A DNA stretch of 64,000 bases from the IMG/VR virus record IMGVR_UViG_3300046167_000888, one strand, 5' to 3'. The position numbers were made by a program, and so were the translations under genes. The DNA comes from a virus. Of this stretch, positions 280 to 25,784 are shown in pieces (the first letter of the stretch is position 1; each line of letters starts with the position of its first letter). The notes under the pieces were generated by a model, which saw only the letters and a list, made by a program, of their open reading frames with translations, was not told the origin of the DNA and searched no databases.

Positions 280-2072
280 ATGGCAAATACATTATCAAAT
301 ACTGGTATAGTAACCGGACAAACAGTAGAAGCTTTACAAGTTTCTCAATCTGTAGACGCATTTACTGGTGCGAATGACTACGACATTACAATATCTGGTT
401 CATTAACACTTACAGGATCCCTCTTCCAAACTGGATCCGTTTATTTTAAACAAATAGCACAAGTTCCAGCTACCGCAAGTAATAACTTAGGAACTGTAAT
501 GATTGACGTAGATGGTCGATTATATTCTGGTTCATCTTCAGTTGGTACCCAAGGTGCTGCTGGAGTAAAAGGTGAAACTGGTTCACAAGGTGCTGATGGA
601 GTTGATGCAACAGGTACTCAAGGTGCTAATGGTGCTCAAGGTGCTGTAGGATCTACAGGTGCAGGTGGTGCTCAAGGTACAATAGGTGAAAAAGGAAACG
701 AAGGAACACAAGGTAGTGCAGGTACTGTAGGACCAGCTGGAGAAAAAGGTACATTTGGTGAAAAAGGTGAAGCTGGTGCTCAAGGTACTAGTGGTACAAA
801 TGGAGAAAAAGGACAACAAGGAGATGCTGGAACAGCAGGTGCTCAAGGTGAATCAGGTGAAAAAGGTGAAACTGGTTCTGCAGGTGGATTAGGTGCTCAA
901 GGTGCACAAGGTGGTGCTGGAGAAAAAGGAGATAATGGAGCTCAAGGTACTGTAGGTGCAGGAGATAAAGGTCAAAAAGGTGAACAAGGAGATGCTGGTA
1001 ACGCAGGTGCTCAAGGAGCAAATGGTGTAACAGGTTCTCAAGGTACTACTGGAGCAGGAGCTCAAGGTGAAACTGGATTAAAAGGTGAAAAAGGAGAAGC
1101 TGGTGCAGGTGGTGCACAAGGTGAAACTGGAGCAGGAGCTCAAGGAGAAACAGGACAAAAAGGTGAAGCTGGAAGTGGTGGAGCTCAAGGTGCTAATGGT
1201 GCCCAAGGAACAAATGGTGAAAAAGGAGCAATAGGAGAAAAAGGAGAAAATGGAGCAGGTGGTGCACAAGGTGAAACTGGAACAGGTGGTGCTCAAGGAG
1301 CAAATGGTGTAAAAGGTGAACAAGGAGATGCTGGTGGTACAGGTGCTCAAGGTGCTCAAGGTACTACAGGAGTAGGAGAAAAAGGTGGAACAGGAGCACA
1401 AGGAACTGCTGGTACAGGTGGTGGATCAGGTGATGTATATAATCCACAAACAAGATATTTAATTGCTAGTGATGGAGATAATTTCCAATTATATGGAACA
1501 TCTACAAGTAATATGTTCTCAGCAGATTGGACAAGATCAGGAGCAGAATTAACAGTATCACATTCAGCAAATGGTTTAGGTGCTGGTGATAAAGTAGTAG
1601 TTAGAAATTCCAATGTAGATTATCAAGTAACAGATGTTATATCTGCTTCACCAGATGGATTTGTAGTAAATTGTTGCCAACTCGGGTGCCTACATCAGGA
1701 ACAGGATGTCAGTATGGAGCTTTATTTACTGCAGCAGTTACTCAAAATTCAGGTGATGTTACAGCAATAGTAATATCAGCACCAGGAGGAACAAATGGTG
1801 CTTCTCAATTAAATACTTTAAATTTATATGCTAATAACCAAGAAAGTGGTTTAGCAATAACACTACCAGCTGGATTACAAGAAGGTGCCGGTGGGTATAA
1901 TGATAAACAAGATATTAATCTAGTATCATTAGACGCAAAAGTATTTGATGGTACAGGAGTATCAGGAGCATTAACTCCAACAGCAACATATAATTTAGGT
2001 GCTAACTTTAATAGAATAGATGTAAGTAATATTGATAACTTTTCACCAGTTAATTTATCAATGAGGTTTTAA
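280..2072 (+). CDS. Collagen-like fibre protein 1 (apparent frameshifts near 1670-1692)
   Basis: About 290 aa of Gly-X-Y repeats (GAQ/GEK/GET). Removing two single-base insertions joins ORF 280..1770 to ORF 1671..2072 (VVNVANSGATSGTGCQYG...). Confidence 0.8.
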
Positions 2073-2100
2073 TTAAAAAAATTAATTAAAAAAAATAAAA

Positions 2101-3142
2101 TAGGATGCATACCCAACGTTTACAATTTGGAAGGTTAACATATGGATCAGCAGATTTTTTCTCTGATTGAAAATAACCAAAATGGATTTATTCGTATAAA
2201 TGCCGAGATACAACAAGTGGATCTCCTATAATTACAAACGTAGGAGAACAAGCTGGTGGAGCATTTACTACATCGGAACTTATGGTTGGTATGACATTAG
2301 TCTCAAGTGGTGAATTTGCAAGTGAAGTAACAATTATATCTTTAGATTTGGGTAATAACCAACTTACGGTATCCGGCAAATGCAACAGCAACTGCCCAAA
2401 ATCAAGTAATGAGAGTAAGACCCTGCTAAAGGAATGTACTTTTTCGAAAGTGCTTCTTTTAATAAAGTAGGTTCAGGGTGAACCCATCTGATTTAAGAGA
2501 TATTACAGGATCAGAAGATGCTGATTATGATTCAAATGAATTAAAATGGGGTGTAGTTGCAGCCATTAGCTGATACAGGTAGTGTAACAACTACAGTAGC
2601 AGGTTTATATGGTCAATACGAAATTACAGAAATACAAAGTAGAATAAGTAATACAGAAATGAATTTCTTTGCTACAGCAAGTGATTCATTACCTTCATTT
2701 ATAGAAGAATCAGGAAGCCAAGTTAGTGCTGGTTCAAGTGTATTAATGGTATCACAGATATCAAATAACTTAATGACAATAGCAGGTGCTCTGATGTAGG
2801 AGGTGGTGGACAAGGTTTAGCTTTAGGCTGCTTACCAAACAGCAGTATCATCAATATTTTCTACTCTAACATCTGGTTCAGGAGGAGGAGATGCTTTTCC
2901 CATATACAGGTTCAGCTCAAATTACAGGTAGTTTAGGTGTAACAGGTAGTGTAGAAGCATTACTTGCTTCAAATGAAAATTTCTTAATTAAGAACGCTAC
3001 AGCACCAACTCAAAGTTTATTTAAAGTAGATGACGAAGGAGTAGCTGTATTTAGAGCAAGAGAAGGAGCAGATGGTGTACCAAGTGCTGTAGTAGGAGGT
3101 TTATATTTCACTACTTCATCAGCATTTTTAGGAGTAGACTAA
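2101..3142 (+). CDS. Virion structural protein fragmented by multiple indels (probably one gene of about 340 aa)
   Basis: Coding-like fragments in shifting frames (2282-2470, 2557-2799, 2891-3142), ending FPYTGSAQITGSLGVTGS...YFTTSSAFLGVD; start position uncertain. Confidence 0.5.
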
Positions 3143-3242
3143 AATTAGAAAAAATATTACAAATACTAAAATTTAGTATTAAGGTTGCATACGTATAAAT
3201 GATAAAACAGAATATTAAATTAACTTAAAAAACAATTAATCA

Positions 3243-4838
3243 ATGGCAACTTGGAAAAAAGTAATTGTATCCGGATCAGTCGCTGACTTATCAGCATTAT
3301 CCCTAGATACAGCATTGCCCGTAGCCTCGGGTGGTACGGGGGCATCAACCCTTACAGATGGTGGTGTTCTTTTAGGTAGTGGAACTGGAGCAATTACTGC
3401 ACTAGGTCAAGCTACAAACGGTCAATTAGTTATTGGTAGTACAGGAGCAGATCCAGTATTAGCAACTTTAACTGGTGGTTCAAACATTACAGTAACAAAT
3501 TCAGCAGGTGGAATTACTATCGCTGCAACAGGATTAGGTTCAGGTACAGTACAATCTGTAGCAGCATCTGGTAATGAAAATGGTATTACATTATCATCAG
3601 ATGGAGATAGTGTTAACCCAACTATTACATTAGGTGGTGCTTTAGCAAACGTTACAAACTCACAATTATCAAACAGTGCAGTAACATTAGGTAATACATC
3701 AGTATCATTAGGTGCAACAGCTGGAACAGTTGATGGCTTAGTATTAACAGATGTAATAGCAACTGGTTCATTCAGTGGTTCATTCAGTGGTAATGTAATT
3801 ACAAACCTAGAAGATTTAACAGCTGGAAACGGTTTATCAGGTGATGCTTATGATGGTAATGTAGCTAGAACTTTTGCAGTACAAGCAGATGGTTCTACAT
3901 TATCAGTAGGTGGATCAGGTGTTAAAGTAGCAGACGCAGGAATTACAGCAACTCAAATCGCAACTTCAGTAGCAGGTGCTGGTTTAGCAGGTGGTGGAGG
4001 AACAGCATTAAGTGTTAATGTTGATGATTCTTCAATCGAAATTGCTACAGATACTCTAAGAGTAAAATCTCAAGGTATTACAGCTGCAATGATTGCTTCT
4101 GGAAGTATTAACCAGAACCATTTAGCATCTGGAATTGGATTGTTCTCAGGATCAGCTCAAGTAAACTTAGGTGATGCTTCAGGAACAGTAACATTAGGAA
4201 CTCAAACAACAGGTAACTACGTAGCAACACTAGGTAGTGGTACTGGTGTAACAATTGGTTCAAATACTGGTGAAGGTTCAACTCCAACAATTGCAGTAGA
4301 CTATGGTTCAACTGCTAACACGGCGGTTCAAGGTAACGTAGGTTTAACAGTTCAAGGTACTACAAACGAAATTGAAGTATCAGGTGGTGGAATTACACTT
4401 GGTGCTGGTGGTACAGCAACAATTGGTTTACCAAGTAATGTTACTATAACTTCAGACTTAAGTGTAGGACAAGATTTAGTAGTAGCTAGAAACTTAACAG
4501 TTCAAGGTACAGCTTCATTTGCCTCAACAACGGATTTAGATGTAGCGGATAGATTCATCAGAATGGCTTCTGGTTCAACAGCAACTGGAGACGGTGGTAT
4601 TGTTGTACAACAAACAGGACCAGCAGATGGTGAAGCTTTTGCTTATGATTCAGCACAAACTAGATGGGGAGTTACAGGGTCTTACGATCCAGCAACAAAC
4701 TCAATTACTCCAGACGCTTTCATGTCTACAGTAGTAATTGGTTCAGGTGGTGATGCAGCAACAGGTGTTGTTTCTAAATACACAAAAGCAGGTAATATGT
4801 TTGTTTCAGCATCAGGAGATATTTACATTTACTCATAA
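3243..4838 (+). CDS. Tail fibre / fibre-associated structural protein (G/S/T-rich)
   Basis: 531 aa with the LPVASGGTGA fibre motif; N-terminus [12 protein letters not shown] is shared with the collagen fibres. Confidence 0.7.
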   Translation: MATWKKVIVSGSVADLSALSLDTALPVASGGTGASTLTDGGVLLGSGTGAITALGQATNGQLVIGSTGADPVLATLTGGSNITVTNSAGGITIAATGLGSGTVQSVAASGNENGITLSSDGDSVNPTITLGGALANVTNSQLSNSAVTLGNTSVSLGATAGTVDGLVLTDVIATGSFSGSFSGNVITNLEDLTAGNGLSGDAYDGNVARTFAVQADGSTLSVGGSGVKVADAGITATQIATSVAGAGLAGGGGTALSVNVDDSSIEIATDTLRVKSQGITAAMIASGSINQNHLASGIGLFSGSAQVNLGDASGTVTLGTQTTGNYVATLGSGTGVTIGSNTGEGSTPTIAVDYGSTANTAVQGNVGLTVQGTTNEIEVSGGGITLGAGGTATIGLPSNVTITSDLSVGQDLVVARNLTVQGTASFASTTDLDVADRFIRMASGSTATGDGGIVVQQTGPADGEAFAYDSAQTRWGVTGSYDPATNSITPDAFMSTVVIGSGGDAATGVVSKYTKAGNMFVSASGDIYIYS

Positions 4839-4851
4839 TAAATGAGTGTAA

Positions 4852-5079: not shown

Positions 5080-5088
5080 TATTTAAAT

Positions 5089-5262: not shown

Positions 5263-5297
5263 GCCTGTTTCTCATATTTATAACCATATAATTTATC

Positions 5298-8200
5298 ATG
5301 GCAAATTGGAGAGAAATCATTATCAGTGGATCAGACGCTGAATTAAATAAATTAAATGTAGATTCATCATTAACAGCAAGCGGACTTATATACCCTGCTG
5401 CTGATGGAAGTAATACTCAAGTTTTACAAACAGATGGATCTGGTAATCTTTCTTTTGCTGATAAAGACTCAGGACCTCAAGGTACTACAGGTGCACAAGG
5501 TGCTCAAGGTCTTGATGGTGATTTAGGTTCAAAAGGTGATATAGGGGAAAAAGGTATTAATGGTGAAAAAGGAGAACAAGGACCAACGGGTGCTCAAGGA
5601 ACAAATGGAGCACAAGGTGTACAAGGTGAAGAAGGACAAAAAGGAGAAGGTGGTGCACAAGGAACTATAGGTGAAAAAGGTGCTCAAGGTACAACAGGAG
5701 GACCAGGTGTAGTTGGACCTAAAGGAGAAAAAGGAGATATAGGATCACAAGGTGTAAATGGAGCACAAGGAGCAGATGGAGCACAAGGTGAAACAGGTGT
5801 TCAAGGAAATGATGGTTCATTTGGAGGTGCTACATTTGATTATACCTTTTCTACTGATACAGCAGGAGGAAATGATCCAGGTCAAGGTATAGTTGAATTA
5901 AATTCTACACAACAAAATACAGCAGATGAAATTTATATTGATGCTACCGATGATAACGGTGTAAGTATTAATTCTTTCTTAGCAACTATTAAAGCGTCAA
6001 GTTCAACAATAAAAGGACATATTCGTATATCTAATAGAATTGATGCAACACAATTTTTATTGTTTCAAATCACAGAATTAACCGTTCAAAACACAGATCA
6101 ATGGTGGGTAATTGACGTAACAAATCAAGCATCAAGCGCACAATCTCCATTTACAAATTCAGAAGATGTAGTATGTTCTTTCTTAGTAACTGGTGATCAA
6201 GGATCTCAAGGTGCTACAGGAGGTGGAGGAGCACAAGGAGCAAATGGTGCTCAAGGTGCTAATGGTAATACAGGTGATAAAGGAGATAAAGGACAAAAAG
6301 GTAGTCAAGGTGCTGTTGGACCTATAGGACCTAAAGGTGCTCAAGGTATTGATGGACCTCAAGGTAACAAAGGATCACAAGGTGAAACAGGTGTAAAAGG
6401 AGACGGAGGAGCACAAGGTGCTAATGGAGCACAAGGTACAATAGGTGAAAAAGGAATTAATGGTGAAAAAGGTGATATTGGAGCACAAGGTGAAACTGGA
6501 TTAAAAGGTGAAGAAGGTGCTCAAGGAACAGACGGTGTTCAAGGTACTGATGGTCAAAAAGGAGCACAAGGTGAAACTGGGTTAAAAGGAGATAATGGAG
6601 ATAAAGGTGCACAAGGTGAAACTGGTTTAAAAGGTGATATTGGACCTCAAGGAGAAACTGGTTTAAAAGGAGATGATGGTGCTCAAGGAGAAACTGGAGA
6701 AAAAGGAGACATTGGAGCTCAAGGAGAATCAGGCGCTAAAGGAGATGGTGGAGCTCAAGGTACTATAGGTGCTCAAGGAACAGATGGTCAAATAGGTGCT
6801 CAAGGTGAAACTGGTGAGAAAGGTGATAATGGTGCCCAAGGAGAAACAGGACAAAAAGGTGCCCAAGGAGAAACAGGATCTCAAGGTACTACAGGTACAA
6901 AAGGAGATGATGGAGCACAGGGCGAAACTGGAGAAAAAGGAGATACTGGAGAAAAAGGAGATATTGGAGCTCAAGGAGTACAAGGAGAAGATGGTCAAAA
7001 AGGTGTTCAAGGTGAAGATGGTCAAAAAGGTGCCCAAGGAGAAACAGGACAAAAAGGATCACAAGGTGAAACTGGAGAAAAAGGAGATACTGGAGAAAAA
7101 GGAGATATTGGAGCTCAAGGAGAAACTGGATTAAAAGGAGAACCTGGAGCACAAGGCGAAACAGGAGCACAAGGTGAAACAGGAACACAAGGAACAGACG
7201 GTGCACAAGGAACTGATGGTGCTCAGGGTACAGATGGAGCACAAGGAACAAATGGTGCCCAAGGTACTGATGGTCAAAAAGGAGCACAAGGCGAAACTGG
7301 TGAAAAAGGTGGTGATGGCGCTCAAGGAGAAACAGGACAAAAAGGTGCCCAAGGAGAAACAGGACAAAAAGGTGCCCAAGGAGAAACAGGACAGAAAGGA
7401 GCACAAGGTGAAACTGGATTAAAAGGTGAAGAAGGTGCTCAAGGTACAGATGGTAACTTTGGTGGTAATTCATTTGATTATACTTTTAGTACTAGCACTG
7501 GTACAGGTGATCCAGGAAGGGGTATATTTAATTTTACAGGATCAGCTAGCCAAAGAACAGCAGCTCAAGGTATTATAGATGATGAAGATGATGCTGGTAA
7601 TGATATATCAGCTACTTTACAAACAATATCTAGTGTATCCTCAGCAATTAAAGGACATATTAGAGTATCAAATAGAACTGATTCACTTCAATTTTTAACA
7701 TTTGCAATTACTGATTTAACTGATAATACAGGTTATTGGAGTTTAAATTTAACAAATGAAGCATATTCAGCTGATAATCCTTTTAGTGATGATGAAGATA
7801 TTTTAATATCATTTACAACTGTAGGTGATAAAGGAGATAAAGGTCAAAAAGGAGAAGTTGGTGTTCAAGGTGAAACTGGTGAGAAAGGTGCTCAAGGCGA
7901 GACTGGAAGTCAAGGTACAACTGGTGAAAAAGGTGCTAAAGGAGATACTTTAGAAAAAGGACAAAAAGGTGCACAAGGACAAACTGGTGCTAAAGGAGAT
8001 ACACTTGAAAAAGGTCAAAAAGGTGCTCAAGGTGAAACTGGAGAAAAAGGAGCACAAGGTGAAACTGGACAGAAAGGTGCCCAAGGAGAAACTGGTACAA
8101 AAGGTGCTCAAGGAGAAGATGGTGTAAAAGGAGCTCAAGGAGAAACTGGAGAAAAAGGTACTAAAGGTGATACCTTAGAAAAAGGTGCTCAAGGTGCAAC

Positions 8201-10371
8201 AGGACAAAAAGGTACTAAAGGTGATACTTTAGAAAAAGGACAAAAAGGTGCACAAGGTGAAACTGGAGAAAAAGGAGCACAAGGTGAAACAGGACAGAAA
8301 GGAGCACAAGGTGAAACTGGTACAAAAGGTGCCTCAAGGAGAAGATGGTGTAAAAGGAGCACAAGGAGAAGATGGTGTAAAAGGTGCTCAAGGAGAAACT
8401 GGAGAAAATGCTCCATTACAAGGTAATGTAGACAATAATCTAGTTACTATGACTGGTGGGACAGCATTATCAGGTTCAGCCAAATTTACCTATGATGGTA
8501 TAGATACTGTTTTAGATGGTACTAGTGGAGGAGGTCATTTTATAACTAAAACTCCATCACAATATAGTGCAGTTTCTGAATATGGATTAGGACATGAAGT
8601 ATTTTCTGCAAATTTAGATAGCGGTTTAATTGCTACATTTAGTAGTTCTTTTGCTACATCAGATAATGTACCAATAATTCAAATGGTAGATAAATCTACT
8701 GGTGGTACAGGAACTAATGTTGGTACATTTAGATTTAATAAAGACACTGGTCATTTTATATTAACACCTAGTGGTTCTGGTAAAACAACTTTCCTTTTAC
8801 TTACAGGTAGTTTATCTGTTTCACAATCTGTATTTTTCCCAGGAGTTGCTGAAAATACTAATAACCTTAAAACTTTAATGATAGACCCTACTTCGGGTAA
8901 ATTAGGATATACAGGTTCATATGGTGGAGGTGGAGGTGGTACTCCAATACAAGGAAACGTTAATAATAACGTATTAACAGCTACAGGAACAACATCTATA
9001 TCAGGTTCAGCTAAATTTACTTATGATGGAGCAGGTGATGTTCACTTAGAAGGTAAATTACAAATTGACCAACAAACTATAACTATAGCTGGAGGTAATG
9101 TTTCATGGAATGTAAATAATGGCTCAAATGCTACTGTTACATTAGGATCAGGTACTAATACATTAGCAATGTCAAATTGGGAAACAGGTGATACTGGTGT
9201 ATTAGTTGTTAAACAAGATGGAACTGGAGGAAGAACATTAGATATTGATTTAAGTGGTAATACTGTTTATTTAGGTAATACTTCATATACACCTTCAACA
9301 GCTGCTAATGCGGTTGATGTATTAGGTTGGTATTATGATGGTTCAAAATATTATGTAACAATAGGTTACGGTGATTCATCAACAGTAGGAGCTAAAGGTG
9401 CTCCAGGAGATTCAGGAGCTCAAGGTGCAGCAGGACCAAAAGGGGTTACAGGACCTCAAGGTGATGATGGTGCTCAAGGATTAGCAGGACCAATTGGTAA
9501 TCAAGGAAATACAGGTCCACAAGGTGCAACAGGACCTCAAGGCTTATTAGGACCAATAGGAAACATTGGACCAATTGGTAATACTGGACCTCAAGGTGCT
9601 GATGGAAATATAGGACCAATAGGAAATATAGGACCTATAGGAAACATTGGACCAATTGGTAATACTGGACCTCAAGGTGCAGACGGTAATATTGGACCAA
9701 TAGGTAATATAGGACCAATAGGAAATACAGGTCCTCAAGGTGCAGATGGAGATAAAGGACCAGCTGGTGATGCAGGACCTCAAGGTGCAGACGGTGGTAT
9801 TGGACCAATTGGTAATACAGGACCACAAGGTGCAACAGGAACACAAGGTGCAGTAGGTGGATCAGGAGCTGAATTTACAGTAACAGGAACAACCACAGAT
9901 GGTGTTGTTACTTTTGATTCAGCAAATGCTTTAACTACTGAAGCAAATATGACATTTGATGGTACTACAGCATATATTAATGGTGCTTTAGGTGTAGGAA
10001 CAGATAATCCAACAACTGTAGGTTTAATAGAAGCTACTAATGATGTTGTAGCATATTACTCATCAGATGAAAGATTAAAAGAAAATATTAAACCTATTCC
10101 ATGGGCATTAGATAAATTAATGAAAATAAATGGTGTAACATTTGATTGGAAACCATTAACTGAAGAACAAAAAATACATATTCATGGACATGAAGGGCAT
10201 GATGTAGGTGTAATAGCTCAAGAAATAGAAAAAGTATTACCTGAAGTTGTAACTACAAGAGATAATGGATATAAAGCTGTTAAATATGAAAAAATAGTTG
10301 CTCTATTAATTGAAGCTATTAAAGAACAACAATCAGAAATAGATCAATTAAAAGATAAAATTAATGGCTAA
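5298..10371 (+). CDS. Collagen-like fibre protein 2 with C-terminal peptidase S74 chaperone (about 1690 aa; apparent +1 insertion near 8332)
   Basis: Long Gly-X-Y runs with two copies of a ~125-aa globular insert; C-terminal YYSSDERLKENI...GVIAQE...VKYEKIVALLIEAIKE; ggt gcc tca agg is ggt gct caa gga plus an extra C. Confidence 0.85.
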
Positions 10372-11629: not shown

Positions 11630-11631
11630 TT

Positions 11632-12150: not shown

Positions 12151-12198
12151 CTTGTTTTCTCCTTATTTTTTCCATACATTGTTCATATGTATGACTAT

Positions 12199-16711: not shown

Positions 16712-16714
16712 AAA

Positions 16715-17257: not shown

Positions 17258-17264
17258 ACAACAT

Positions 17265-18083
17265 ATGTATTTTGGATCTTTTGGAAATAATAATTTAAAA
17301 TTAAGAGGAAACAATTCAGGTACTTTAATGCCTTGTGATTGTCAAGGATTTTTTAACAATGCCTTTGTTGCTTGTTTTTCTTGGCCATATTGGAACAATA
17401 CTAACATTAATCAAGGATGTAGTAGTTGGACAGCTTATTTATTACCTTGTGTAGGTAATGCAATAGTAAATGTAGGAACAGCGCCATCATCAACTAATGC
17501 TCAATCTTCTCGTGTACGAAATCAAGATAGACCTTTTGGAATTAATTTACATGGTGTAACAAATGCTGAAAAAGTTTCATTTACAAATTGGAACCCTATA
17601 ACCACTGTTGGTACTCTTCAAGGATATCAAAATGTAGGATTATCTAATAGATCTAATTTTGTTGGTATTAATGTTATTATGACTTATGGGTATACTTTTG
17701 GAGGTTGGAGAGCAAATACCGCTTCGGGTGGTTTAATTACTTTGTCTCAAGCTACTAATTTATATACCACAGGTACTTATGGAAGTACTGATTTTAGAGA
17801 TTTAAATGATGTATTTTCATCAGTTTTCTCTGATAGAAGATTAAAAGAAAATATTAGATGTATAGGTAAATCAAAATCAGGAATTAACATTTATACTTGG
17901 AACTATAAAAATCCAGAAAAATTTGGATATGGTACATACCAAGGAGTAATGGCTCAAGAAGTACCTCATGCTACAGTACAACATCCTAATGGATATTTAG
18001 CAGTAAATTATTCTAAAACAGACGTTACATTTAAAAAGTTATATGAAAGCAATTTGGGTAATAGAAAACGTCAAGAAGGATAA
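17265..18083 (+). CDS. Structural protein with C-terminal S74-like chaperone domain
   Basis: FSDRRLKENI...GINIYTWNY...QGVMAQEV...GYLAVNY. Confidence 0.7.
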   Translation: MYFGSFGNNNLKLRGNNSGTLMPCDCQGFFNNAFVACFSWPYWNNTNINQGCSSWTAYLLPCVGNAIVNVGTAPSSTNAQSSRVRNQDRPFGINLHGVTNAEKVSFTNWNPITTVGTLQGYQNVGLSNRSNFVGINVIMTYGYTFGGWRANTASGGLITLSQATNLYTTGTYGSTDFRDLNDVFSSVFSDRRLKENIRCIGKSKSGINIYTWNYKNPEKFGYGTYQGVMAQEVPHATVQHPNGYLAVNYSKTDVTFKKLYESNLGNRKRQEG

Positions 18084-18921
18084 TTCCTTTTATGATGAAT
18101 TTAAATTAGTTATGTTATTTGCTTCCGTAAGTTTATGGAAGAAATATCATCCTGAACATACTACAATTCTATATTGTGATGAAATGACAGAAAAATATCT
18201 GTCTAATCTTAATGTATTTCCATTATGGGATCAAATTAAACATTTATCTTATCCTGAAAAAATTAATCGAGAAATATTTTGGTCAAGTTGTAAAACAAAA
18301 ATTATAAGTGAAGCAACGGAACCTATAGTAGTTATAGATCATGATTTTTTAATATTCACTAATATAGATGAACATTTAAAAGAAAAAGTATTATATACTC
18401 ATGAAGAACAAGCTTATCCTTGGTACCCAGCTAAAGAAGATAGGTATTGTGCTCGTTTATCTAAACCTTCCCCTTATGAATTAGATTTAGCAGCTAATGT
18501 ATCATTATTTTATTTACCTGATCCTAAATTTGCTAAAATGTATGGTGAATGGGTGTTACAAAATCACGAAGAATTTACTATAATGGATTTTGAAGGTATG
18601 GATCCTAATTATATGATTTATTCAGAACAACTAATGTTAAAACAACTATTAGTTAGGGATAATATCCCACATAATACGTTAACAATCAACGTATTTGACA
18701 ATAAAAAACAAATATTTACTGATGCAATTAATTTATATGGTATTTGGAATCGTGAAGAATCTCCATTACATTATAGACACTATGGGTTTGATAAACGTCT
18801 TTTACAAGATGATAAAGACGAATTATCTTATTTATATAGATGTATAAATGCAAGTAAAAAAATTAACGTTAAGTTATTAAAAGAAAAAATTCATGAAAGC
18901 AATTCACGTAAATTGGACTAA
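18043..18921 (+). CDS. Putative GT-A fold glycosyltransferase-like protein
   Basis: ILYCDE, FWSSCK and PIVVIDHD (DxD) motifs; paralogous to the next gene. Confidence 0.5.
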   Translation: MKAIWVIENVKKDNSFYDEFKLVMLFASVSLWKKYHPEHTTILYCDEMTEKYLSNLNVFPLWDQIKHLSYPEKINREIFWSSCKTKIISEATEPIVVIDHDFLIFTNIDEHLKEKVLYTHEEQAYPWYPAKEDRYCARLSKPSPYELDLAANVSLFYLPDPKFAKMYGEWVLQNHEEFTIMDFEGMDPNYMIYSEQLMLKQLLVRDNIPHNTLTINVFDNKKQIFTDAINLYGIWNREESPLHYRHYGFDKRLLQDDKDELSYLYRCINASKKINVKLLKEKIHESNSRKLD

Positions 18922-19882
18922 ACCTTTCTTTAATAGAGATAGGTTAAGAGGTCATGGATTTGAATCTACAAAACAATTAAAATCTAACACATACGATCAA
19001 CTTGACCATCAAATATTATACACAATGCTATCAGCAGTGTATTGGAAAAAATATAATGGCCCAATTAAATTGTATACTGATTCAGTTGGTGCTTCATTTT
19101 ATCAAAGATTTGGTTTATTAGATTTATATGATGAAATAGATATAAAATATTTAAATAATTACTCTAAATCAGACATAGATGCTGCTTATTTTTGGACTAG
19201 TGGTAAAATAAAATGTTTAGCCCATCAAACTGAACCTTTTGTTTTTTTAGATCAAGATATGATTGTTAAACAACCACTACCTGAATGGGTAAGAACAAAT
19301 GATTTAACAATTGCTCATTGGGAAATAGGTAGAGGTTATTATTATTTTGATAGAGAAAAATGGGAAAGAGAAATTACTCATATACCATGGATTGAAAATT
19401 ACAACTCAGATGATTGGTCACCTAATACATCATTTCTGTGTTTTAATAACATGGAATTACTTAAAGAATATCATAATTGGCATAAGTATTTAGTAAAAAC
19501 AGAACCATATTATAATATACCAGAATGGTATTGGTTATTAACAGACCAAGGTATTTTAGGTCATATTATTAGAGAAAACGATTATAATATAAATACGTTA
19601 ACTCAAAAAATATCATTATCACATCATAATACAATTGATACAGCAACTAGATATAAAGGTAAAGCTGAAAAATGGTATAATGTAGTTGACCCAGATTATG
19701 ATGAAATAAATGATGAACCAAAAGAAGTTAGATTTGAGCATGTTTGGTTAGATAAAATTAATATTCAAAATTTACAAACAGATAGATGGTTTAAAGAATT
19801 AGTTGAAGATTTTGATTGTAGTAAATATCTTACAGATATAAGATGGAATAAACATTGGAAAAATTACCATGAAAATAATTAG
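18893..19882 (+). CDS. Putative GT-A fold glycosyltransferase-like protein
   Basis: KLYTD, FWTSGKI, PFVFLDQD (DxD) and TDQGIL motifs; MKAI- start like its upstream paralog. Confidence 0.55.
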   Translation: MKAIHVNWTKPFFNRDRLRGHGFESTKQLKSNTYDQLDHQILYTMLSAVYWKKYNGPIKLYTDSVGASFYQRFGLLDLYDEIDIKYLNNYSKSDIDAAYFWTSGKIKCLAHQTEPFVFLDQDMIVKQPLPEWVRTNDLTIAHWEIGRGYYYFDREKWEREITHIPWIENYNSDDWSPNTSFLCFNNMELLKEYHNWHKYLVKTEPYYNIPEWYWLLTDQGILGHIIRENDYNINTLTQKISLSHHNTIDTATRYKGKAEKWYNVVDPDYDEINDEPKEVRFEHVWLDKINIQNLQTDRWFKELVEDFDCSKYLTDIRWNKHWKNYHENN

Positions 19883-20615
19883 AGTACTTTGGGGTAATAA
19901 TATAAACCATGAGATACCTCCATGTCCATTATTGGAAAATGAAGTTGTTTATGTATGGGGGGATGAAAACAATCAAATGATGATTGATAGAGGATGGGAA
20001 ACTAGACCTTATAATACTAATTTTATATTTGAAGGTAAATATAATGCATTTGGTAAAAAATTACTTGCATTAAAAGAAGCAATGGAAGAATTTGGTGAGG
20101 TATTATTACTAGATTGGGATTGTTATTTAATAAAACCTTTAGATGAAAAATTTTATAACACGTTAAAAACTAAACCGGTACAAATTCCTCTTTACATTCA
20201 ACATAAAGATACTAAAGATGCTATATTAGAAATTTTACCGCCAAACCAAAGTATTGAATTACAAAAAGAATTAGATATATTAGGAAAAGGATTTAAAAAA
20301 TATGGTTGGGAATGGGAAGATGGATATGTAGCTCCTAATTTTGGTTTTGTATATTGTAGAGATAAAGATTTTGCTCAAAAATTATATGATATAGCAATTA
20401 ATCATAATTTACAAACTGTAGTAGATGAGTTTGCTACATTAATACAGGTTGATTGTACATTAGAAGAATATATAGAAAAATATTTACCTACTGTATTAAG
20501 AGGTTCTAGCAATGATAAATTTATTTTTGATGCTAGATTACATAAATTAGGAAAAAAATTCAATGATTACATTGATACTATAACAAAAATAACACCTTAT
20601 TTTAATCATGTCTAA
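19869..20615 (+). CDS. Putative glycosyltransferase-like protein (paralog A)
   Basis: EVLLLDWDCYL (DxD), PNFGFVY, C-terminal YFNHV. Confidence 0.5.
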   Translation: MKIIRVLWGNNINHEIPPCPLLENEVVYVWGDENNQMMIDRGWETRPYNTNFIFEGKYNAFGKKLLALKEAMEEFGEVLLLDWDCYLIKPLDEKFYNTLKTKPVQIPLYIQHKDTKDAILEILPPNQSIELQKELDILGKGFKKYGWEWEDGYVAPNFGFVYCRDKDFAQKLYDIAINHNLQTVVDEFATLIQVDCTLEEYIEKYLPTVLRGSSNDKFIFDARLHKLGKKFNDYIDTITKITPYFNHV

Positions 20616-21396
20616 ATTAAAATTTATAAGAACTTGGTGGGGGGACCAACAAGATAAATGGTTAGAAGTCCCCAAAATACCTTTAATATCATCTGAAGAT
20701 GAAATTGTATATGTTTGGGGTAAGGAAAATTTAAATAAATTTAAAGAAAGAGGATACAATTGTGTCTTAATGAAAGAAGATGAATTTAGTGGAAAAAGTA
20801 TTTATGGAAAAAAATTAACCGTTTTAAATAAAGCATTAAAAGAATGGGGTGAAGTATTAATGTTAGATTGGGATTGTTATTTATCATCACCTCTAGATGA
20901 TAATTTTTATACAATGTTATCTAAAAAACCTATACAAATACCATTATATGCTCATCATAAAGAACCTGATGTAGCATTATTAGAAGCAATTCCAGATGAC
21001 CATCCAATTCTTCAATCAGAAAAAACATATATTGAGTTAATAACTAATTTAGAATCAATAGCATTAGAAATTCCTAAATATCATTGGGAATGGAATGAAA
21101 ATTTAATTATTCCTAATTTTGGTTGTGTTTATTCTAGAGATATAAATTTAGGAGAAGATTTAATTAAAATAGCTAAAGAAAATAATATAAAAGGATTAGT
21201 AGAAGAATTTGCAATGTGGAAATACGCTAATTGTACATTAGAAGAATACATTGAACATTACCATCCTGATTATGTATTAGGCGTATCAGATGATAGATTA
21301 AAAGACCAAGAATATAGTATTAGTATAATACAAAAAGAATTTAATAAAGAAATAAAAACTAAAATTAATTTAAAACAATATTTTAATCATGTATAA
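20608..21396 (+). CDS. Putative glycosyltransferase-like protein (paralog B)
   Basis: EVLMLDWDCYL, PNFGCVY, C-terminal YFNHV; tandem paralog of 19869..20615. Confidence 0.5.
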   Translation: MSKLKFIRTWWGDQQDKWLEVPKIPLISSEDEIVYVWGKENLNKFKERGYNCVLMKEDEFSGKSIYGKKLTVLNKALKEWGEVLMLDWDCYLSSPLDDNFYTMLSKKPIQIPLYAHHKEPDVALLEAIPDDHPILQSEKTYIELITNLESIALEIPKYHWEWNENLIIPNFGCVYSRDINLGEDLIKIAKENNIKGLVEEFAMWKYANCTLEEYIEHYHPDYVLGVSDDRLKDQEYSISIIQKEFNKEIKTKINLKQYFNHV

Positions 21397-21982
21397 AGTA
21401 AAAGTAATATCACTTAAAAGACGTGAAGATAGACGTGCTCATATGGCTCATATGTTTCAACATATAAATTTTGAATTTGTTGACGCTTTAGATGGGCAAA
21501 CATATAATTTAACAGAATTTGATAAAGAATTTATTGAAGGTAATGATTATGAAAAACATGGAATACACATCCCATCTTTAGTTTGTGCTAATTATACACA
21601 TTTAAATTTGTTAGATGAATGTTCAAAACAAGATCAACCTTATTTTATATTTGAAGATGATGTTGAAATGACTGGAGCTAAAGCTCCTGATTTATATTTT
21701 GAAGCATTAGCTTCAGTTGAAGATTTAGATGCTTTTTGGTTTATTCCTAATGAACCAAGTATTGCCGCTTATATAGTATGGCCAAAGGGTGCTAAAAAAA
21801 TGATTGATTATGTAAATAATGTTTCTAAATTAAAAAGAGGTTTAGATTGGGCATTTTGGGATTTAAGAAAATCTAAAGATTTCCGTGCGGATCAATCAAA
21901 AGAAGCGTATTTTAAACATGACCCTGGAAAAGACTCTGATATCACAACAATAGAAAACTATGATATTTCATCCGACAAATAA
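21389..21982 (+). CDS. Glycosyltransferase family 25
   Basis: VISLKRREDRR, FEFVDALDG, YFIFEDD and AAYIV..GAKK motifs typical of GT25. Confidence 0.8.
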   Translation: MYKVKVISLKRREDRRAHMAHMFQHINFEFVDALDGQTYNLTEFDKEFIEGNDYEKHGIHIPSLVCANYTHLNLLDECSKQDQPYFIFEDDVEMTGAKAPDLYFEALASVEDLDAFWFIPNEPSIAAYIVWPKGAKKMIDYVNNVSKLKRGLDWAFWDLRKSKDFRADQSKEAYFKHDPGKDSDITTIENYDISSDK

Positions 21983-22664
21983 GGAAAATATATTTCATTT
22001 AGCTCCTATACCAGTTTATAAAAGGAGATATGTAGATTGTCCTGTTACTAAAAAAATAAATAAACTTGGGTTTAAAATTTTAACTCAAGAACAAAAAAGA
22101 ATGGGTCAAGAATTACCTGGTCAATATGATAAACATAGACAAGATAATTATGAAATTAATTATGATTATCAAGAAGAATGGGTTGAAGATCATGAATTAC
22201 AACCTATAGGAAGTAGATTTTTTGTTGAACCTAATAACTTTTTAACTGAATGGGGATACAAACCAGAAAAAAACACAGGTAATAAAGATGTAGATGTTAT
22301 TACTCGAAGAATAAAAGCGGGTTTTAAAGAACTAACAGGTAAAGATGGAGAAGTAACTGAAAGTTGGGCTCAATATTATGAACCAACTGCAGGTAGAGGA
22401 CATAATGCTCATAATCATAATAGATGGCAACATAAAGAAGAAAAACCTTTAATGTACTCTGGTGGTTATTATTTAGATGATGGTGATCCTTTAAAAGATC
22501 ATCCTTACAGTGGTGCTTTTGCTTTTCATATAGGAGGAAAAAAACATTATATTAGACCTAGAGAAGGGATGTTATTAATTTGGCCACATGATATTATTCA
22601 CTCAGTAGAACCATTTTATGGTAATAGACATAGAGCAGTAATTAATTTTAATATACAAGCATGA
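21960..22664 (+). CDS. 2OG-Fe(II) oxygenase (HxH type)
   Basis: ESWAQ, HNAHNH, SGGYY, PREGMLLIWPHDIIHSVEP, RAVINFN. Confidence 0.75.
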   Translation: MIFHPTNKENIFHLAPIPVYKRRYVDCPVTKKINKLGFKILTQEQKRMGQELPGQYDKHRQDNYEINYDYQEEWVEDHELQPIGSRFFVEPNNFLTEWGYKPEKNTGNKDVDVITRRIKAGFKELTGKDGEVTESWAQYYEPTAGRGHNAHNHNRWQHKEEKPLMYSGGYYLDDGDPLKDHPYSGAFAFHIGGKKHYIRPREGMLLIWPHDIIHSVEPFYGNRHRAVINFNIQA

Positions 22665-23509
22665 ATATAATTTTTGATATACCTGGTGGAATAGGTAAAG
22701 TATTAATGGCAACTGCTATTGTAAAAGGACTTAAAGCCAAATACCCCACAGATAAAATAATTACAGTTTCAGGTCATCCTTTAGTATTTAAAAATAACCC
22801 TAATGTTCATGCTTCATTTCAATTAGCGGATAGAGATAGAGTTAGGGAACAATATATAAAAGACCAAGAATGTAAAATTATAGCTAGAGAACCTTATTAT
22901 GAGCAAAATCATATTTTTCAAAAGGAACATTTACTAGAAACATGGTTTAAATTATTAGATTTAGAATATTGGGGACAACAACCAGATATTTATTTAGATG
23001 ATCAAGAAATACAATCATATAAAAAATTATATAAATCAGATAAACCTATAATGGTTATCCAACCTCATGGGGGTGCTTCACCCGAAGTACCTTATAACTG
23101 GGTAAGAGATATTCCACCTAAAATAACTAAAAAATTAATAGAAAAGTATAAAGATACTCATACTATCTATTTAATAAAAAGCCCAAAACAACCTAAATAT
23201 AAAGATGTAAAAGAAGAAATAGGATCTATTAGAAGAGTAGCTATACTATTAAGTATGGCTGAAAAAAGATATCTTATTGATAGTTTTGCTCAACATTTAG
23301 CAATGGCTTTAAGAAAACCATCTACCGTATTTTGGATAGGAACTAATCCAAAGGTATTTGGGTATGATATACATAATAACATTAAAGCAAACCCATTCCA
23401 ATTAGAAACAAATAGTGGGTTGTATCATGGAAGAAATTTAACAGAAGTCATAGAAAGCTTGCCTTATGTAAATGAGGATTGTATATTCGATGTCGAAAAA
23501 ATTATATAA
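22661..23509 (+). CDS. GT-B fold glycosyltransferase (GT9/heptosyltransferase-like)
   Basis: GGIGKVLMATAIV, FKNNPNV, VIQPHGG, LIDSFAQHLAMAL..PSTVFW. Confidence 0.7.
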   Translation: MNIIFDIPGGIGKVLMATAIVKGLKAKYPTDKIITVSGHPLVFKNNPNVHASFQLADRDRVREQYIKDQECKIIAREPYYEQNHIFQKEHLLETWFKLLDLEYWGQQPDIYLDDQEIQSYKKLYKSDKPIMVIQPHGGASPEVPYNWVRDIPPKITKKLIEKYKDTHTIYLIKSPKQPKYKDVKEEIGSIRRVAILLSMAEKRYLIDSFAQHLAMALRKPSTVFWIGTNPKVFGYDIHNNIKANPFQLETNSGLYHGRNLTEVIESLPYVNEDCIFDVEKII

Positions 23510-23511
23510 CT

Positions 23512-24109
23512 ATGTTTCAAAGCTATGCATTTGATCAACAAGAAGTTGATTTACAAAATTACTACTATATTCTTAATGGATTTAGTAAAGAAGAATTAAA
23601 TAGAATAGAACAAGATGTTTCTACTTTACCTTTTCAACAAGCAAGTACTGTTGGAGGTGATAGTAAAAAAGTAAGATCATCTAAAGTAAAATGGGTACCT
23701 CATAATAATGATTGGTTTTGGTTATATGAAAAACTATCTGATTATGCTGTAGAAGCTAATTTTGCATTATGGAATTTTGACTTAACATTAATCCCAGAAC
23801 AAATACAATACACTGAATATTATGCTTCAGAACAAGGACATTATGATTGGCACGCTGATATAGGTCCAGGTTTATTATCTAAAAGAAAAGTATCTATTAC
23901 AGTTCAATTATCTGAACCCTGATGAATATGAAGGAGGAGATTTAGAATTATTCCAAGGTGGAAGTATGAGTGGTCCTTTTCCTAAAGCAGAAAGAAGAGC
24001 AGGTTGTGTGTTTATTTTCCCCTCGTTTATGATGCATAGAGTAGCCCCAGTTACAAAAGGTGTAAGAAAATCATTTGTAATATGGTTAGGTGGTCAACAT
24101 TATAAATAA
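23512..24109 (+). CDS. 2OG-Fe(II) oxygenase, prolyl-4-hydroxylase/PKHD type (apparent +1 insertion near 23918)
   Basis: HYDWHAD and RKVSITVQLSEP; after removing one C it continues DEYEGGDLELF...FIFPSFMMHRVAPVTKGVRKSFVIWLGG. Confidence 0.85.
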
Positions 24110-24112
24110 TGT

Positions 24113-25150
24113 ATGTTAAACAATTTATCTAAATTTGTAATTAATAATGGAGGAAGTATTACCCCATTATTATTATCCGAAGAGCAAGGTAGAGGTATGG
24201 GTCTTTGTAATGTTTCTATTTACTTAGATGATAACGGTGATATACTTGCTAATATTAGGAATGTACATTATATTCTATATCATGATGAATTTGGACAAAA
24301 TTTCCATTGTAGATGGGGTACATTATCTTATTTAAATCCTGAAGATGATATTAAATTAAGAACAAAAAACTATTTTTGTAAATTAGATCCTAATACTTTA
24401 GAAGTTATTTCATCTACAGAAATTGATACATCAAAACATGATATAAAACCAGTTTGGACTTTTATTGGATTAGAAGATGTTAGGTTAGTTAGATGGGAAG
24501 GTCAATTATACTATTGTGGTGTAAGACGAGATACTAAAACTAATGGAGAAGGTAGAATGGAATTATGTAAACTAGATGTTAGACCAGATGGAGTTTATGA
24601 AACAACTAGAGAAAGAGTTGAAGTAAACCCACATACACATTTAGAAAAAAATTGGATGCCTATTTTAGATATGCCTTTCCATTATGTTAGATGGTGTAAC
24701 CCGTTAGAAATAATTAAAGTTAATCCTGAAGATAAATCAAAACATAAGGCACAAGAAGGTATGTTAGATATAATATCAAGTGAGGTAGTATTTAAAAGTG
24801 ATCAAGAAATAAGTCTACCTTTAGGAGTAAGGGGTGGTTCACAAGTAATACCTTTTGGTAATGATGGAGATAGAATATGCATAACTCATGATACACATTT
24901 TTACCATCATCAAAATGAAAAAAAAGATGCTCAATATTATCACAGGTTTATAATATGGGATAAAGATTGGAAAGTTAAAAGAATATCAGAGCAATTTAAG
25001 TTTATGGATGCTATGATTGAGTTTGCTTGTGGTTTAATTATAAAAGATGGTAATTTAATTATGACTTATGGTTATCAGGATAATGCCGCTTATGCATTAA
25101 AAATGCCTTTAAATTTATTAGATGAATTAAAATGGGATATTGATGAGTAA
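24113..25150 (+). CDS. Five-bladed beta-propeller glycoside-hydrolase-like protein (GH130/GH43-like)
   Basis: GLEDVRL, EKNWMP, RGGSQ, IEFACGL, TYGYQD motifs. Confidence 0.6.
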   Translation: MLNNLSKFVINNGGSITPLLLSEEQGRGMGLCNVSIYLDDNGDILANIRNVHYILYHDEFGQNFHCRWGTLSYLNPEDDIKLRTKNYFCKLDPNTLEVISSTEIDTSKHDIKPVWTFIGLEDVRLVRWEGQLYYCGVRRDTKTNGEGRMELCKLDVRPDGVYETTRERVEVNPHTHLEKNWMPILDMPFHYVRWCNPLEIIKVNPEDKSKHKAQEGMLDIISSEVVFKSDQEISLPLGVRGGSQVIPFGNDGDRICITHDTHFYHHQNEKKDAQYYHRFIIWDKDWKVKRISEQFKFMDAMIEFACGLIIKDGNLIMTYGYQDNAAYALKMPLNLLDELKWDIDE

Positions 25151-25784
25151 TTTACAAACACATTTACATAATTATATTGATGATCCTCTTAATCCTCATT
25201 TTAATGCTGAATTAGGAGAGGCTTATGAACAATTAGGACAGGGAGCTGCTGCTTTATCTTATTTTTTAAGGGCTGCGGAGTTATTGGTTGGTGTAGATAT
25301 AGATTTATCTTATAATTGTCTTTTAAAAACATGGAAGCAAGTAAATAAAATAGGAAGAAGAAATGATTGGGAAAGAGCTCAATTACAATTAGCAACATCT
25401 TATCTACCTACTAGGCCAGAAGCATATTTATTTTTAAGTAAACATTTTGCTAAAAAACAAGATCATCACTCAGCTTATTTATATGCTTGTTTAGGATTAC
25501 AATATATAAATTCAACACCTTTAAAATATAATGTTGGGTATCCTGGTGATTATATGCTATATTTTCTAAAAGCTTATCATGGATGGTACCTAGCTAAAAG
25601 AGAAGAATCAAAATCTATATGGAAAAAATTAGGTGAAATGCCCAATATACCTGAAGAACATAAAAAAATAATCGAAAACAATAATAAAAATTTTAATAAT
25701 ACGCCAACTCCTCCGTCTTTTATAAATTTTGTTATGAAGAATGCAAATGATAGTAAACATGAAAAATATTATATTGGAAAATAA
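25140..25784 (+). CDS. TPR-like protein
   Basis: LGEAYEQLGQGAAALSYFLRAAE and PTRPEAYLFLS helical repeats. Confidence 0.65.
   Translation: MMSNLQTHLHNYIDDPLNPHFNAELGEAYEQLGQGAAALSYFLRAAELLVGVDIDLSYNCLLKTWKQVNKIGRRNDWERAQLQLATSYLPTRPEAYLFLSKHFAKKQDHHSAYLYACLGLQYINSTPLKYNVGYPGDYMLYFLKAYHGWYLAKREESKSIWKKLGEMPNIPEEHKKIIENNNKNFNNTPTPPSFINFVMKNANDSKHEKYYIGK

Follow-up and report, generated by a model that had tools for sequence, protein, structure and literature searches.

A candidate fibre-modification island behind giant collagen-like fibres of an uncultured marine myophage

The presence of enzyme-like genes directly behind three giant collagen-like fibres raises the question of whether a phage modifies its own collagen, and through which of these genes. 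The window, a stretch of 64,000 nucleotides (IMG/VR record IMGVR_UViG_3300046167_000888) whose source is read as an uncultured marine T4-like myophage, has a distal-fibre module followed by an island of ten closely packed enzyme-like genes, all on the + strand, with overlaps of 4–41 nt at most junctions between adjacent genes from 18043 to 25784. A homing endonuclease and a primase are found directly downstream. The arrangement described in an earlier note, with three collagen fibres, an enzyme cluster and a methyltransferase between the fibres, was recovered in full, in position and on the + strand.

About 250 related loci were compared, and the order and strand of the island are kept across many uncultured marine phage contigs. 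The cassette is modular, and collagen is tracked only by its last three genes, here called OG2, prop and TPR; the pair retained most widely is that of prop and TPR, commonly with OG2 beside them, and the remaining genes vary among relatives. Apparent single-base indels (near 1670, 8330, 14563, 15241 and 23917) interrupt all three fibres and OG2; an inserted base is the reading at three of the fibre sites, and the 1-nt insertions in several fibre genes and OG2 are probably assembly errors.

Collagen-like fibres and their neighbours

The three fibres contain 714 Gly-X-Y triplets, counted in runs of at least five and including 130 GxK and 143 GxT, with Pfam Collagen matches at E-values of 1e-29 and 1e-20. 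Fibre 1 (280..2072, +; 81 triplets in runs, Pfam Collagen 1.4e-29) spans two frames because of the apparent frameshift near 1670. Fibre 2 (5298..10371, +; 286 triplets) contains two knot domains that are not collagen and ends in a Peptidase_S74 chaperone, its frame being broken by an extra C near 8330. Fibre 3 (12261..16712, +; 347 triplets) starts with the MPNWKK anchor, ends with an S74 chaperone, has proline at 31% of X positions and is broken near 14563 and near 15241, each time by one extra base. As claimed earlier, residue Y is mostly Gln (23–34% across the fibres), Lys (14–23%) or Thr (11–23%), and proline is nearly confined to X (136 GPx against 2 GxP). No Gly-X-Y run of at least five was found in the + frames across the 47 kb beyond 16720.

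The fibre module also includes a non-collagen protein with a MATWKK N-terminus (3243..4838, +), an ORF without a matching Pfam family, whose homologues are found by tblastn upstream of collagen fibres in relatives (L024, L048, L071, L081, L082). The fibre-associated protein at 10364..11629 (+) has the MxNxNFFR start that recurs after the fibres of relatives, and it is followed by a class I SAM methyltransferase (11632..12150, +; Methyltransf_25, 9.6e-8), a homologue of which sits within the enzyme cassette in other lineages, methyltransferase matches adjoining GT9-like or propeller genes in L030, L031, L050, L057 and L062. A conserved 180-aa protein (16715..17257, +), for which no Pfam or PHROG family was found, invariably comes after the distal fibre, whether or not this is collagen-like, and does so on a 641-kb megaphage contig as well. 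The last gene before the island encodes a short protein that resembles a fibre and has a Peptidase_S74 chaperone domain (17265..18083, +; PF13884, 2e-6; phrog_6121, virion structural protein).

Genes that track collagen

The island gene with the strictest link to collagen is prop (24113..25150, +), seen only downstream of collagen-like fibres. Upstream sequence of at least 6 kb was available for 57 prop loci; 45 of them have at least 60 collagen triplets there and 52 have at least 10. Of the 12 low-count loci, six have their fibres outside the range retrieved, owing to a large cassette or a cut contig, and the other six have 6–35 triplets. In the IMG/VR loci, the coding strand showed no collagen-type run downstream of prop. 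A second sample, anchored on the MPNWKK fibre N-terminus and thus unbiased with respect to prop, contains a majority of non-collagen fibres. In it, none of the 39 contigs without collagen, four complete genomes included, has prop, and four of the six informative contigs with collagen have it (Fisher's exact test, ~1e-4, calculated by hand and ignoring relatedness). Both prop and OG2 are absent from two collagen-fibre contigs of 95 and 42 kb, so prop is dispensable for collagen fibres.

The GH-like propeller reported earlier proved to have a GH130 fold. The prop model (pLDDT 83) is a five-bladed propeller that matches GH130 mannoside phosphorylases/synthases and Leishmania GT108 mannosyltransferases with Z-scores of 18–23 over 253–282 aligned residues, and other propeller glycosidases with 17–18. 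In contrast to this likeness of fold, the prop sequence matched neither Pfam GH130 nor solved GH130 chains. It has an invariant G-x-E-D-x-R motif, which we take to resemble the GH130 catalytic motif, and is frequently fused to an FkbM methyltransferase. The known GH130-fold enzymes act on glycans, and none is known to act on protein.

Translationally coupled to prop is the TPR gene (25140..25784, +), whose earlier assignment holds through Pfam TPR matches that are weak, and which in other lineages forms fusions with WavE or FkbM domains. Binding of the two products is predicted with a score of 0.93, the best control reaching 0.50; 58 out of 80 solved complexes, as against 2 out of 110 mismatched pairs, came up to that mark. 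At least 87% of contacts are common across runs and the partner pLDDT is at least 85. We know of no GH130 or GT108 member with an obligate TPR partner.

OG2 (23512..24106, +) is a P4H/PKHD(PiuC)-type 2OG oxygenase with the HxD...H...R arrangement, retaining H113-x-D115, H174 and R184/K185, and its profile matches PKHD/PiuC hydroxylases at 8e-9. Here it is broken by an extra C at about 23917; the insertion is missing and the gene intact in the near-identical contig L027. The presence of OG2 next to prop agrees with a fibre proline fraction at X of at least 0.065 in 43 of 43 distinct loci, a threshold set after inspecting the data and with counts covering the visible part of each phage's fibres; the fraction is 0.07–0.56 in OG2-positive loci and 0–0.06 in OG2-negative loci. 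These loci are related, with strong synteny. On the prop tree, OG2 and the proline trait each change five times and the places coincide; with only about five independent OG2 changes, two of them on well-supported branches, a sign test is unable to reach 0.05. OG2 is not limited to proline-bearing collagen, as one contig has a homologue distant from a proline-free fibre and a second has one behind a non-collagen fibre.

General enzyme genes and the lysine route

The other seven island genes are variable among relatives and also occur behind non-collagen Ser/Thr-rich fibres. The four genes described earlier as DxD GT-like do have conserved motifs of this kind, their identity as glycosyltransferases staying putative. 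These are GTa (18043..18921, +), a distant DUF6734 paralogue and putative GT-A-like enzyme with a conserved DxD; the DUF6734 protein itself (18893..19882, +; PF20508, 3.6e-12), with a DxD invariant in the alignment and found after non-collagen fibres too; GTc (19869..20615, +), which belongs to no named family and has an invariant D-W-D; and its paralogue GTd (20608..21396, +), 44% identical to it. The GT25 claimed at 21389 was confirmed as a short protein of 197 aa (21389..21982, +) that matches PF01755 through only its N-terminal half, at 61.5 bits where the cut-off is 24, and has an E-D-D motif invariant in the alignment; its profile matches in the PDB are weak and include mimivirus R655, bacterial GT25 and COLGALT1. 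Both 2OG-Fe(II) oxygenases were also recovered, OG1 (21960..22664, +) being of the Oxy_5/TIGR02466 type with a prolyl-hydroxylase-like 2OG oxygenase fold. The GT9 likeness of the protein at 22661..23509 (+), possibly GT-B, exists in below-threshold matches.

The earlier note had proposed that Y-position lysine is hydroxylated by the ORFs at 21960 and 23512 (OG1 and OG2) and then galactosylated by the GT25. This mapping is not supported, as Y-Lys tracks neither GT25 nor OG1: L003 has both genes and 1% Lys at Y, L057, L085, L045 and L043 have 14–29% Lys without either, and Lys at Y is entirely missing in half of the propeller-bearing loci. No lysyl hydroxylase was matched at E ≤ 1 by either oxygenase profile; the resemblance of both is to enzymes of the prolyl-hydroxylase type. 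A separate GT25–lysyl-hydroxylase fusion is found at another place on the contig of a relative (LH3, 3.6e-26; COLGALT1, 7e-16), and hydroxylation and galactosylation of Y-Lys, if they occur, are more likely due to such a fusion at another site of the genome than to the cassette. The general idea that the phage modifies its own collagen survives without the animal lysine scheme, through the restriction of prop to positions downstream of collagen and the co-variation of OG2 with proline.

Known systems, alternatives and proposed role

A virus that combines genes for collagen-like proteins with a hydroxylase and glycosyltransferases of its own is known in mimivirus, which has the lysyl hydroxylase/glucosyltransferase L230, the glucosyltransferase R699 and the putative GT25 R655, and which modifies the collagen it encodes (PMC9546862). 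Among PDB entries, R655 is the best match of the phage GT25, yet at only 2.6e-4. Unlike the mimivirus set, the cassette enzymes are not PLOD-type, the likely lysine enzyme being the separate fusion, and what is linked to collagen is a P4H/PiuC-like oxygenase plus a propeller of GH130 fold and its TPR partner. In animal collagen maturation (C-P4H, P3H, PLOD/LH3, COLGALT1), 2OG oxygenases and a GT25-family enzyme likewise accompany Gly-X-Y proteins, the C-P4H and P3H hydroxylases are partnered by TPR-like domains, and the phage Lys at Y could serve as a PLOD-type site. However, with proline at X instead of Y, the canonical 4-hydroxylation site is missing, the phage GT25 is equally distant from COLGALT1 and bacterial GT25 or nearer the latter, and a GH130-type enzyme has no counterpart there. 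SgtA, encoded next to bclA3, O-glycosylates Thr of GPT collagen repeats (PMC7157674), which resembles the many GxT triplets of the phage; however, BclA/BclA3 are spore appendages and not virion fibres, the enzyme families differ and no hydroxylase is present. Mycobacteriophage enzymes glycosylate virion proteins (Freeman et al. 2023, as cited in PMC12801897 and PMC12619734), the glycans in those accounts being on capsid and tail-tube C-termini and not on collagen.

That the enzymes instead act during infection to remodel the envelope glycans of the host (LPS, capsule, cell wall), for example for a superinfection block or as an aid to release, with the fibre adjacency reflecting shared late timing, is rather unlikely. 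GT25, WavE and GT9 are typical LPS-core families, and the marine cyanomyoviruses S-SCSM2R and P-SSM2 have similar glycosyltransferase clusters including GT25 and an MGP (GH130) gene, which are annotated as host cell-wall or DNA modification and not tied to collagen fibres (PMC12801897). This annotation, in which 13 glycosyltransferases and an MGP gene of a cyanomyovirus are read as envelope remodelling, counts against a fibre reading. Additionally, DUF6734-type and other GT-like genes as well as 2OG oxygenases are found behind non-collagen fibres, among them those of four complete genomes without collagen, so that presence in collagen-free relatives holds for these genes but not for prop. Envelope remodelling leaves unexplained why prop and TPR are restricted to collagenous fibres within an otherwise conserved module and why OG2 tracks fibre proline; we also know of no role of P4H-like oxygenases in LPS synthesis.

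It is quite improbable that the post-fibre slot is an accessory-gene hot spot with unrelated targets (DNA bases, small molecules, metabolites), one version being DNA hypermodification by an oxygenase and a glycosyltransferase. The gene content of the slot does differ greatly among relatives, a homing endonuclease and a primase lie next to it, and GTc, paired with OG1 in other phages, occurs in such pairs far from any fibre, with GTc-type pairs among nucleotide-metabolism genes in L104. However, both oxygenases look like protein prolyl hydroxylases, TET/JBP or AlkB are not among the best 50 structural matches of OG1, the island shares strand and tight coupling with structural genes, and random cargo is disfavoured by the prop–collagen and OG2–proline links. 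Little probability is likewise given to prop and TPR being non-enzymatic, as an assembly chaperone or a lectin-like structural tip needed by collagen-type fibres only. Chaperones or adhesins are often encoded behind T4-type fibre genes, a chaperone role is common for TPR proteins, complex formation by the pair is predicted, and prop has no sequence match to GH130; against this, the FkbM and WavE fusions indicate sugar chemistry, the G-x-E-D-x-R motif is retained and the fibres bring their own S74 chaperones.

Here it is proposed, with about an even chance of being right, that the locus is a fibre-modification island in which prolyl hydroxylation and GH130-type glycosylation are specific to collagen fibres. 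We infer the substrates and reactions from gene content, folds, predicted prop–TPR binding, synteny and co-variation. The collagen-specific module would comprise OG2, prop and TPR, where OG2 would hydroxylate the X-position proline of Gly-Pro-Y in newly made fibre chains and the predicted prop–TPR heterodimer would transfer a mannose-type sugar, with a sugar-1-phosphate or a nucleotide sugar as donor, its TPR subunit possibly holding the unfolded collagen chain; the sugar may also be methylated in lineages with FkbM fused to prop or TPR. The general module (GTa, DUF6734, GTc, GTd, GT25, OG1, the GT9-like protein and the methyltransferase at 11632) probably initiates or lengthens glycans on fibre proteins generally. 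As OG2, prop and TPR alone track collagen, the phage probably modifies its own fibres.

Collagen-like fibres and the genes downstream

All genes of the window are encoded on the + strand, with a GC content of ~30% in the window and 40-45% in the collagen genes. Three collagen-like fibres were found, fibre 1 (280-2072, +, 81 Gly-X-Y triplets), fibre 2 (5298-10371, +, 286 triplets) and fibre 3 (12261-16712, +, 347 triplets), with uninterrupted Gly-X-Y runs reaching 188 triplets and matches to the Pfam collagen family (PF01391; cut-off 27.2 bits) that score 102 and 73.5 bits; the remaining 47 kb of the window has no Gly-X-Y run of the fibre type. Fibres 2 and 3 also have a C-terminal Peptidase_S74 intramolecular chaperone domain (67 and 54.7 bits, respectively; Pfam cut-off 22), which was found as well in ORF 17265 (28.4 bits). 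The triplet composition described in the earlier note, with mostly Gln, Lys or Thr at Y and Pro in X, was borne out by the totals of 130 GxK, 143 GxT, 136 GPx and 2 GxP. The collagen segments of fibres 2 and 3 are separated at three places (5823-6230, 7461-7823 and 14433-14793) by a repeated non-collagen domain of ~125 aa, which matches no Pfam family and is present in relatives too. This domain may serve as a knot for registration or trimerisation.

Apparent single-base indels near 1670, 8330, 14563 and 15241, three of which read as inserted bases, shift the reading frame and affect every fibre. Similarly, one surplus C at ~23917, in a C run, interrupts the frame of the oxygenase gene OG2 (23512-24106); it is missing from L027, an independent contig 95% identical overall and 99% identical around the site. 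We attribute these indels to errors of assembly or to mutations of the strain, and read the genes as intact. Additionally, the gene at 2100-3142 is split into three frame pieces. Two contigs from marine metagenomes, L188 (CAACVC010000145.1) and L027, are independent of the window and share 95-97% identity with it.

The tight packing previously noticed in the enzyme cassette holds: the genes between 16715 and 25784 lie close together, and from 18043 on most neighbours overlap by 4-41 nt. Downstream of the cassette are the genes for a T4-like myophage terminase, portal, major capsid and tail sheath, the capsid protein being 54.6% identical to its counterpart in Flavobacterium phage immuto. Searches of GenBank phages with the cassette (nucleotide) and with GT25 and the oxygenase OG1 (tblastn) gave no match. 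A SegE-type GIY-YIG homing endonuclease (25835-26323) lies between the cassette and the primase, a position kept in most relatives.

The OG2-prop-TPR end

Many uncultured marine contigs show the same gene order, which runs from g16715 (16715-17257), encoding a conserved 180-aa protein after the distal fibre, through the TPR protein gene (25140-25784) and the SegE-like endonuclease to the primase. Among the loci fetched via the propeller gene prop (24113-25150), 80 from IMG/VR and 80 from metagenomes, the constant core is prop and TPR, usually with OG2, and the remaining enzymes vary. Collagen triplets upstream of prop numbered at least 60 in 45 and at least 10 in 52 of the 57 loci with at least 6 kb upstream; six of the 12 low-count loci have their fibres outside the fetched range (large cassette or cut contig) and the other six have 6-35 triplets. 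No collagen was found downstream of prop in the IMG/VR loci.

A further sample, unbiased as to prop, was anchored on the N-terminal MPNWKK motif of the fibres, the majority of which were non-collagen. Contig-level searches replaced the within-locus 2x2 test on these fibre-anchored loci, which was underpowered because the 10 kb flank is shorter than fibre plus cassette. The prop gene was found in none of the 39 collagen-free contigs, which include four complete genomes, and on four of the six informative collagen-bearing contigs (Fisher's exact ~1e-4, by our own hand calculation and with relatedness ignored); two contigs, G006 and G007, have collagen fibres without prop. The association of the cluster with collagen suggested in the earlier note thus stands for its OG2-prop-TPR end and falls for the rest, since DUF6734-type and other GT-like genes, as well as 2OG oxygenases, are likewise found behind Ser/Thr-rich fibres that lack collagen (L124, L156, L173, L183 and L138), and sub-cassettes of DUF6734, GTc and OG1 are present in jumbo and 641-kb phage contigs. 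Collagen specificity is therefore confined to the OG2-prop-TPR end of the island.

In L138 (11877-18455), two short ORFs and then a row of three short genes come after a non-collagen fibre of 1238 aa that is 42% Ser+Thr. An HMM identifies the central gene of the three as an OG2-type 2OG oxygenase, whereas its two neighbours are oxygenase-like by eye only. In the jumbo and 641-kb contigs, a Cys-rich protein of ~345 aa follows DUF6734-GTc-OG1 (L018:11280-12332 and L103:11019-12047), and by eye looks like a putative radical-SAM/SPASM enzyme. It is no homologue of prop, and nor is the 350-aa gene found after the oxygenases of the jumbo lineage.

In all 43 distinct loci, an OG2 gene adjoining prop goes together with Pro at X in those fibres that are visible, using a Pro-at-X threshold chosen after the data had been seen. 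Pro at X was 0.07-0.56 in OG2-positive loci and 0-0.06 in OG2-negative loci (Mann-Whitney p 1e-8, unweighted). On the prop tree, OG2 and X-Pro each change five times, in the same places, giving five concordant independent pairs (two on starred branches of the tree), a number too small for the sign test to reach significance. Two contigs are exceptions: in one, an OG2 homologue is present at a distance from a fibre that has no Pro, and in the other, a homologue comes after a non-collagen fibre.

The OG2 protein has the iron-binding HxD...H triad (H113, D115 and H174) together with a basic residue for 2OG binding (R184/K185), all invariant in the alignment, and its profile matches the PKHD/PiuC hydroxylases (PiuC and Sbal_3634 at 8e-9 to 3e-8). 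Its NCBIfam equivalog score is 66 bits, below the cut-off of 143, and OG2 is by these scores a PiuC relative, not a PiuC equivalog. Our literature search found nothing on the structure of PiuC.

For prop, no match was found in Pfam at E <= 0.1, the GH130 family PF04041 included, nor in a PDB sequence search at E <= 10. Its model (pLDDT 83) is a five-bladed propeller, closest to GH130 mannoside phosphorylases/synthases (Z 20-23) and to the Leishmania GT108 mannosyltransferases (Z 18-19), with the best propeller outside GH130/GT108 at Z 18.2. The motif G119-x-E121-D122-x-R124 is invariant in the alignment and appears to resemble the GH130 motif. The predicted complex of prop with TPR scored 0.93, the best control scoring 0.50; among reference pairs, 58 of 80 solved complexes attained that mark, as did two of 110 mismatched pairs. 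At least 87% of contacts were common to the runs, with a partner pLDDT of at least 85. This prediction supports the binding of prop to TPR.

The proposed lysine route and the other cassette enzymes

It had been proposed that the phage may hydroxylate and glycosylate its own collagen fibres, after the animal model of Lys hydroxylation at Y and galactosylation by a GT25-family enzyme (here GT25, 21389-21982). Neither GT25 nor OG1 (21960-22664) tracks Lys at Y in the co-variation, and this route was rejected for the cassette. Lys at Y is absent in half of the prop loci, and GT25 was missing altogether from five contigs whose fibres have no lysine. Searches with the profiles of OG1 and OG2 returned neither LH3 nor L230 at E <= 1, and the GT25 profile matched R655 (2.6e-4), bacterial GT25 (7.8e-4) and COLGALT1 (3.8e-3) weakly and about equally. 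The relative L068 has, on its contig and ~53 kb away from its own cassette, a gene for a 476-aa protein with GT25 and oxygenase domains (L187:652-2079, -). Its matches to LH3 (3.6e-26), mimivirus L230 (1.3e-23) and COLGALT1 (7e-16) mark this protein as a true GT25-lysyl-hydroxylase fusion. It exemplifies a true collagen-lysine enzyme in these phages, and the cassette enzymes are of another kind.

OG1 probably belongs to the Oxy_5/TIGR02466 group, scoring 26.8 bits against the Pfam cut-off of 27 for 2OG-FeII_Oxy_5, with most of its homologues annotated as PF13759 in precomputed data. The best structural matches of its model (pLDDT 87) are the protein prolyl hydroxylases PPHD and PHD2 and an uncharacterised Roseovarius protein, 3bvc, at Z ~14, the match to 3bvc (Z 14.2) being level with the prolyl hydroxylases. 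Its Atlas neighbours include bacterial proteins with fused TPR repeats.

GT25 matches PF01755 with 61.5 bits (cut-off 24), over profile positions 3-99 of 199, which covers only the N-terminal half, and its E89-D90-D91, an acidic metal/nucleotide-sugar motif of the DxD type, is invariant in six orthologues. Some relatives have a second, full-length GT25 (300 aa, 70 bits) between GTa and DUF6734 (L006 ~5030-5584; G003:C1:9523-10077). The four genes read earlier as DxD glycosyltransferase-like comprise two paralogue pairs, GTa (18043-18921) with DUF6734 (18893-19882) and GTc (19869-20615) with GTd (20608-21396). Their motifs, D120-x-D122 in DUF6734/GTa and D82-W-D84 in GTc/GTd, each after a hydrophobic strand, proved invariant and align with each other in profile-profile comparison (probability 64%), and no named GT family could be assigned: the four genes had no Pfam GT family and no usable PDB profile match, none of the GTc/GTd orthologues reached the Pfam threshold for any GT family, and the GTc/GTd and GT25 profiles showed no match to one another. 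A single weak Atlas lead pointed to GT8, and no literature on DUF6734 was found. The GT9-like gene (22661-23509) scored 13.1 bits against a Pfam cut-off of 22; GT9 matches appeared in three of 10 orthologues, all at E >= 0.018, with PDB 3tov at E 0.33, and Pfam scans of the orthologues gave no GT family above threshold.

Readings of the island and their meaning

The island can be read as one of fibre modification, in which OG2 would hydroxylate proline at X, prop-TPR would attach a mannose-type sugar to the collagen fibres, and the variable enzymes would make glycans on fibres in general; we give this about an even chance. All the chemistry in it is inferred. A more specific version, a non-animal route of fibre maturation, seems rather unlikely as a whole. 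Here, a PiuC/P4H-type oxygenase would act on X-position prolines in Gly-Pro-Y, a two-subunit enzyme, with a GH130-fold propeller and a TPR protein holding the substrate, would glycosylate the fibre protein directly, as the first GH130/GT108-type enzyme with a protein substrate, and a second set of unnamed, interchangeable DxD enzymes would then add lineage-specific glycans to the fibres.

The enzymes could instead remodel the host envelope, which is the usual reading of such cyanophage genes (PMC12801897) and has to be set beside the tie of the OG2-prop-TPR end to collagen. They could also be unrelated cargo in a hyperplastic slot, DNA modification included; no TET/JBP or AlkB protein was seen among the best 50 structural matches of OG1. 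For prop-TPR, the rival role is that of a non-enzymatic chaperone. In relatives, however, an FkbM methyltransferase is often fused to prop, and WavE or FkbM to TPR, fusions which tie the pair to sugar chemistry and to one another.

Collagen-like fibres are common in abundant marine phages. Viral collagen modification and phage virion glycosylation are already known, with close precedents in the collagen modification of mimivirus (PMC9546862), in the O-glycosylation of Thr in the GPT repeats of BclA3 by the adjacent SgtA (PMC7157674) and, as cited in PMC12801897, in mycobacteriophage virion glycosylation. Our literature search found no description of a prop-TPR-OG2 module or of its tie to fibre composition, and nothing linking phage collagen fibres with hydroxylases.

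If fibre modification is correct, prop-TPR would open a new class of protein glycosyltransferases. Marine phages have many orphan genes labelled '2OG-Fe(II) oxygenase', and for one of them the link between OG2 and proline would predict a concrete substrate. It also touches the wider question of how a triple helix is stable without hydroxyproline at Y. For the phages themselves, host recognition, fibre stability and escape from host proteases and grazers would hinge on post-translational chemistry, and the genes behind it would be among those now annotated as 'LPS genes'.
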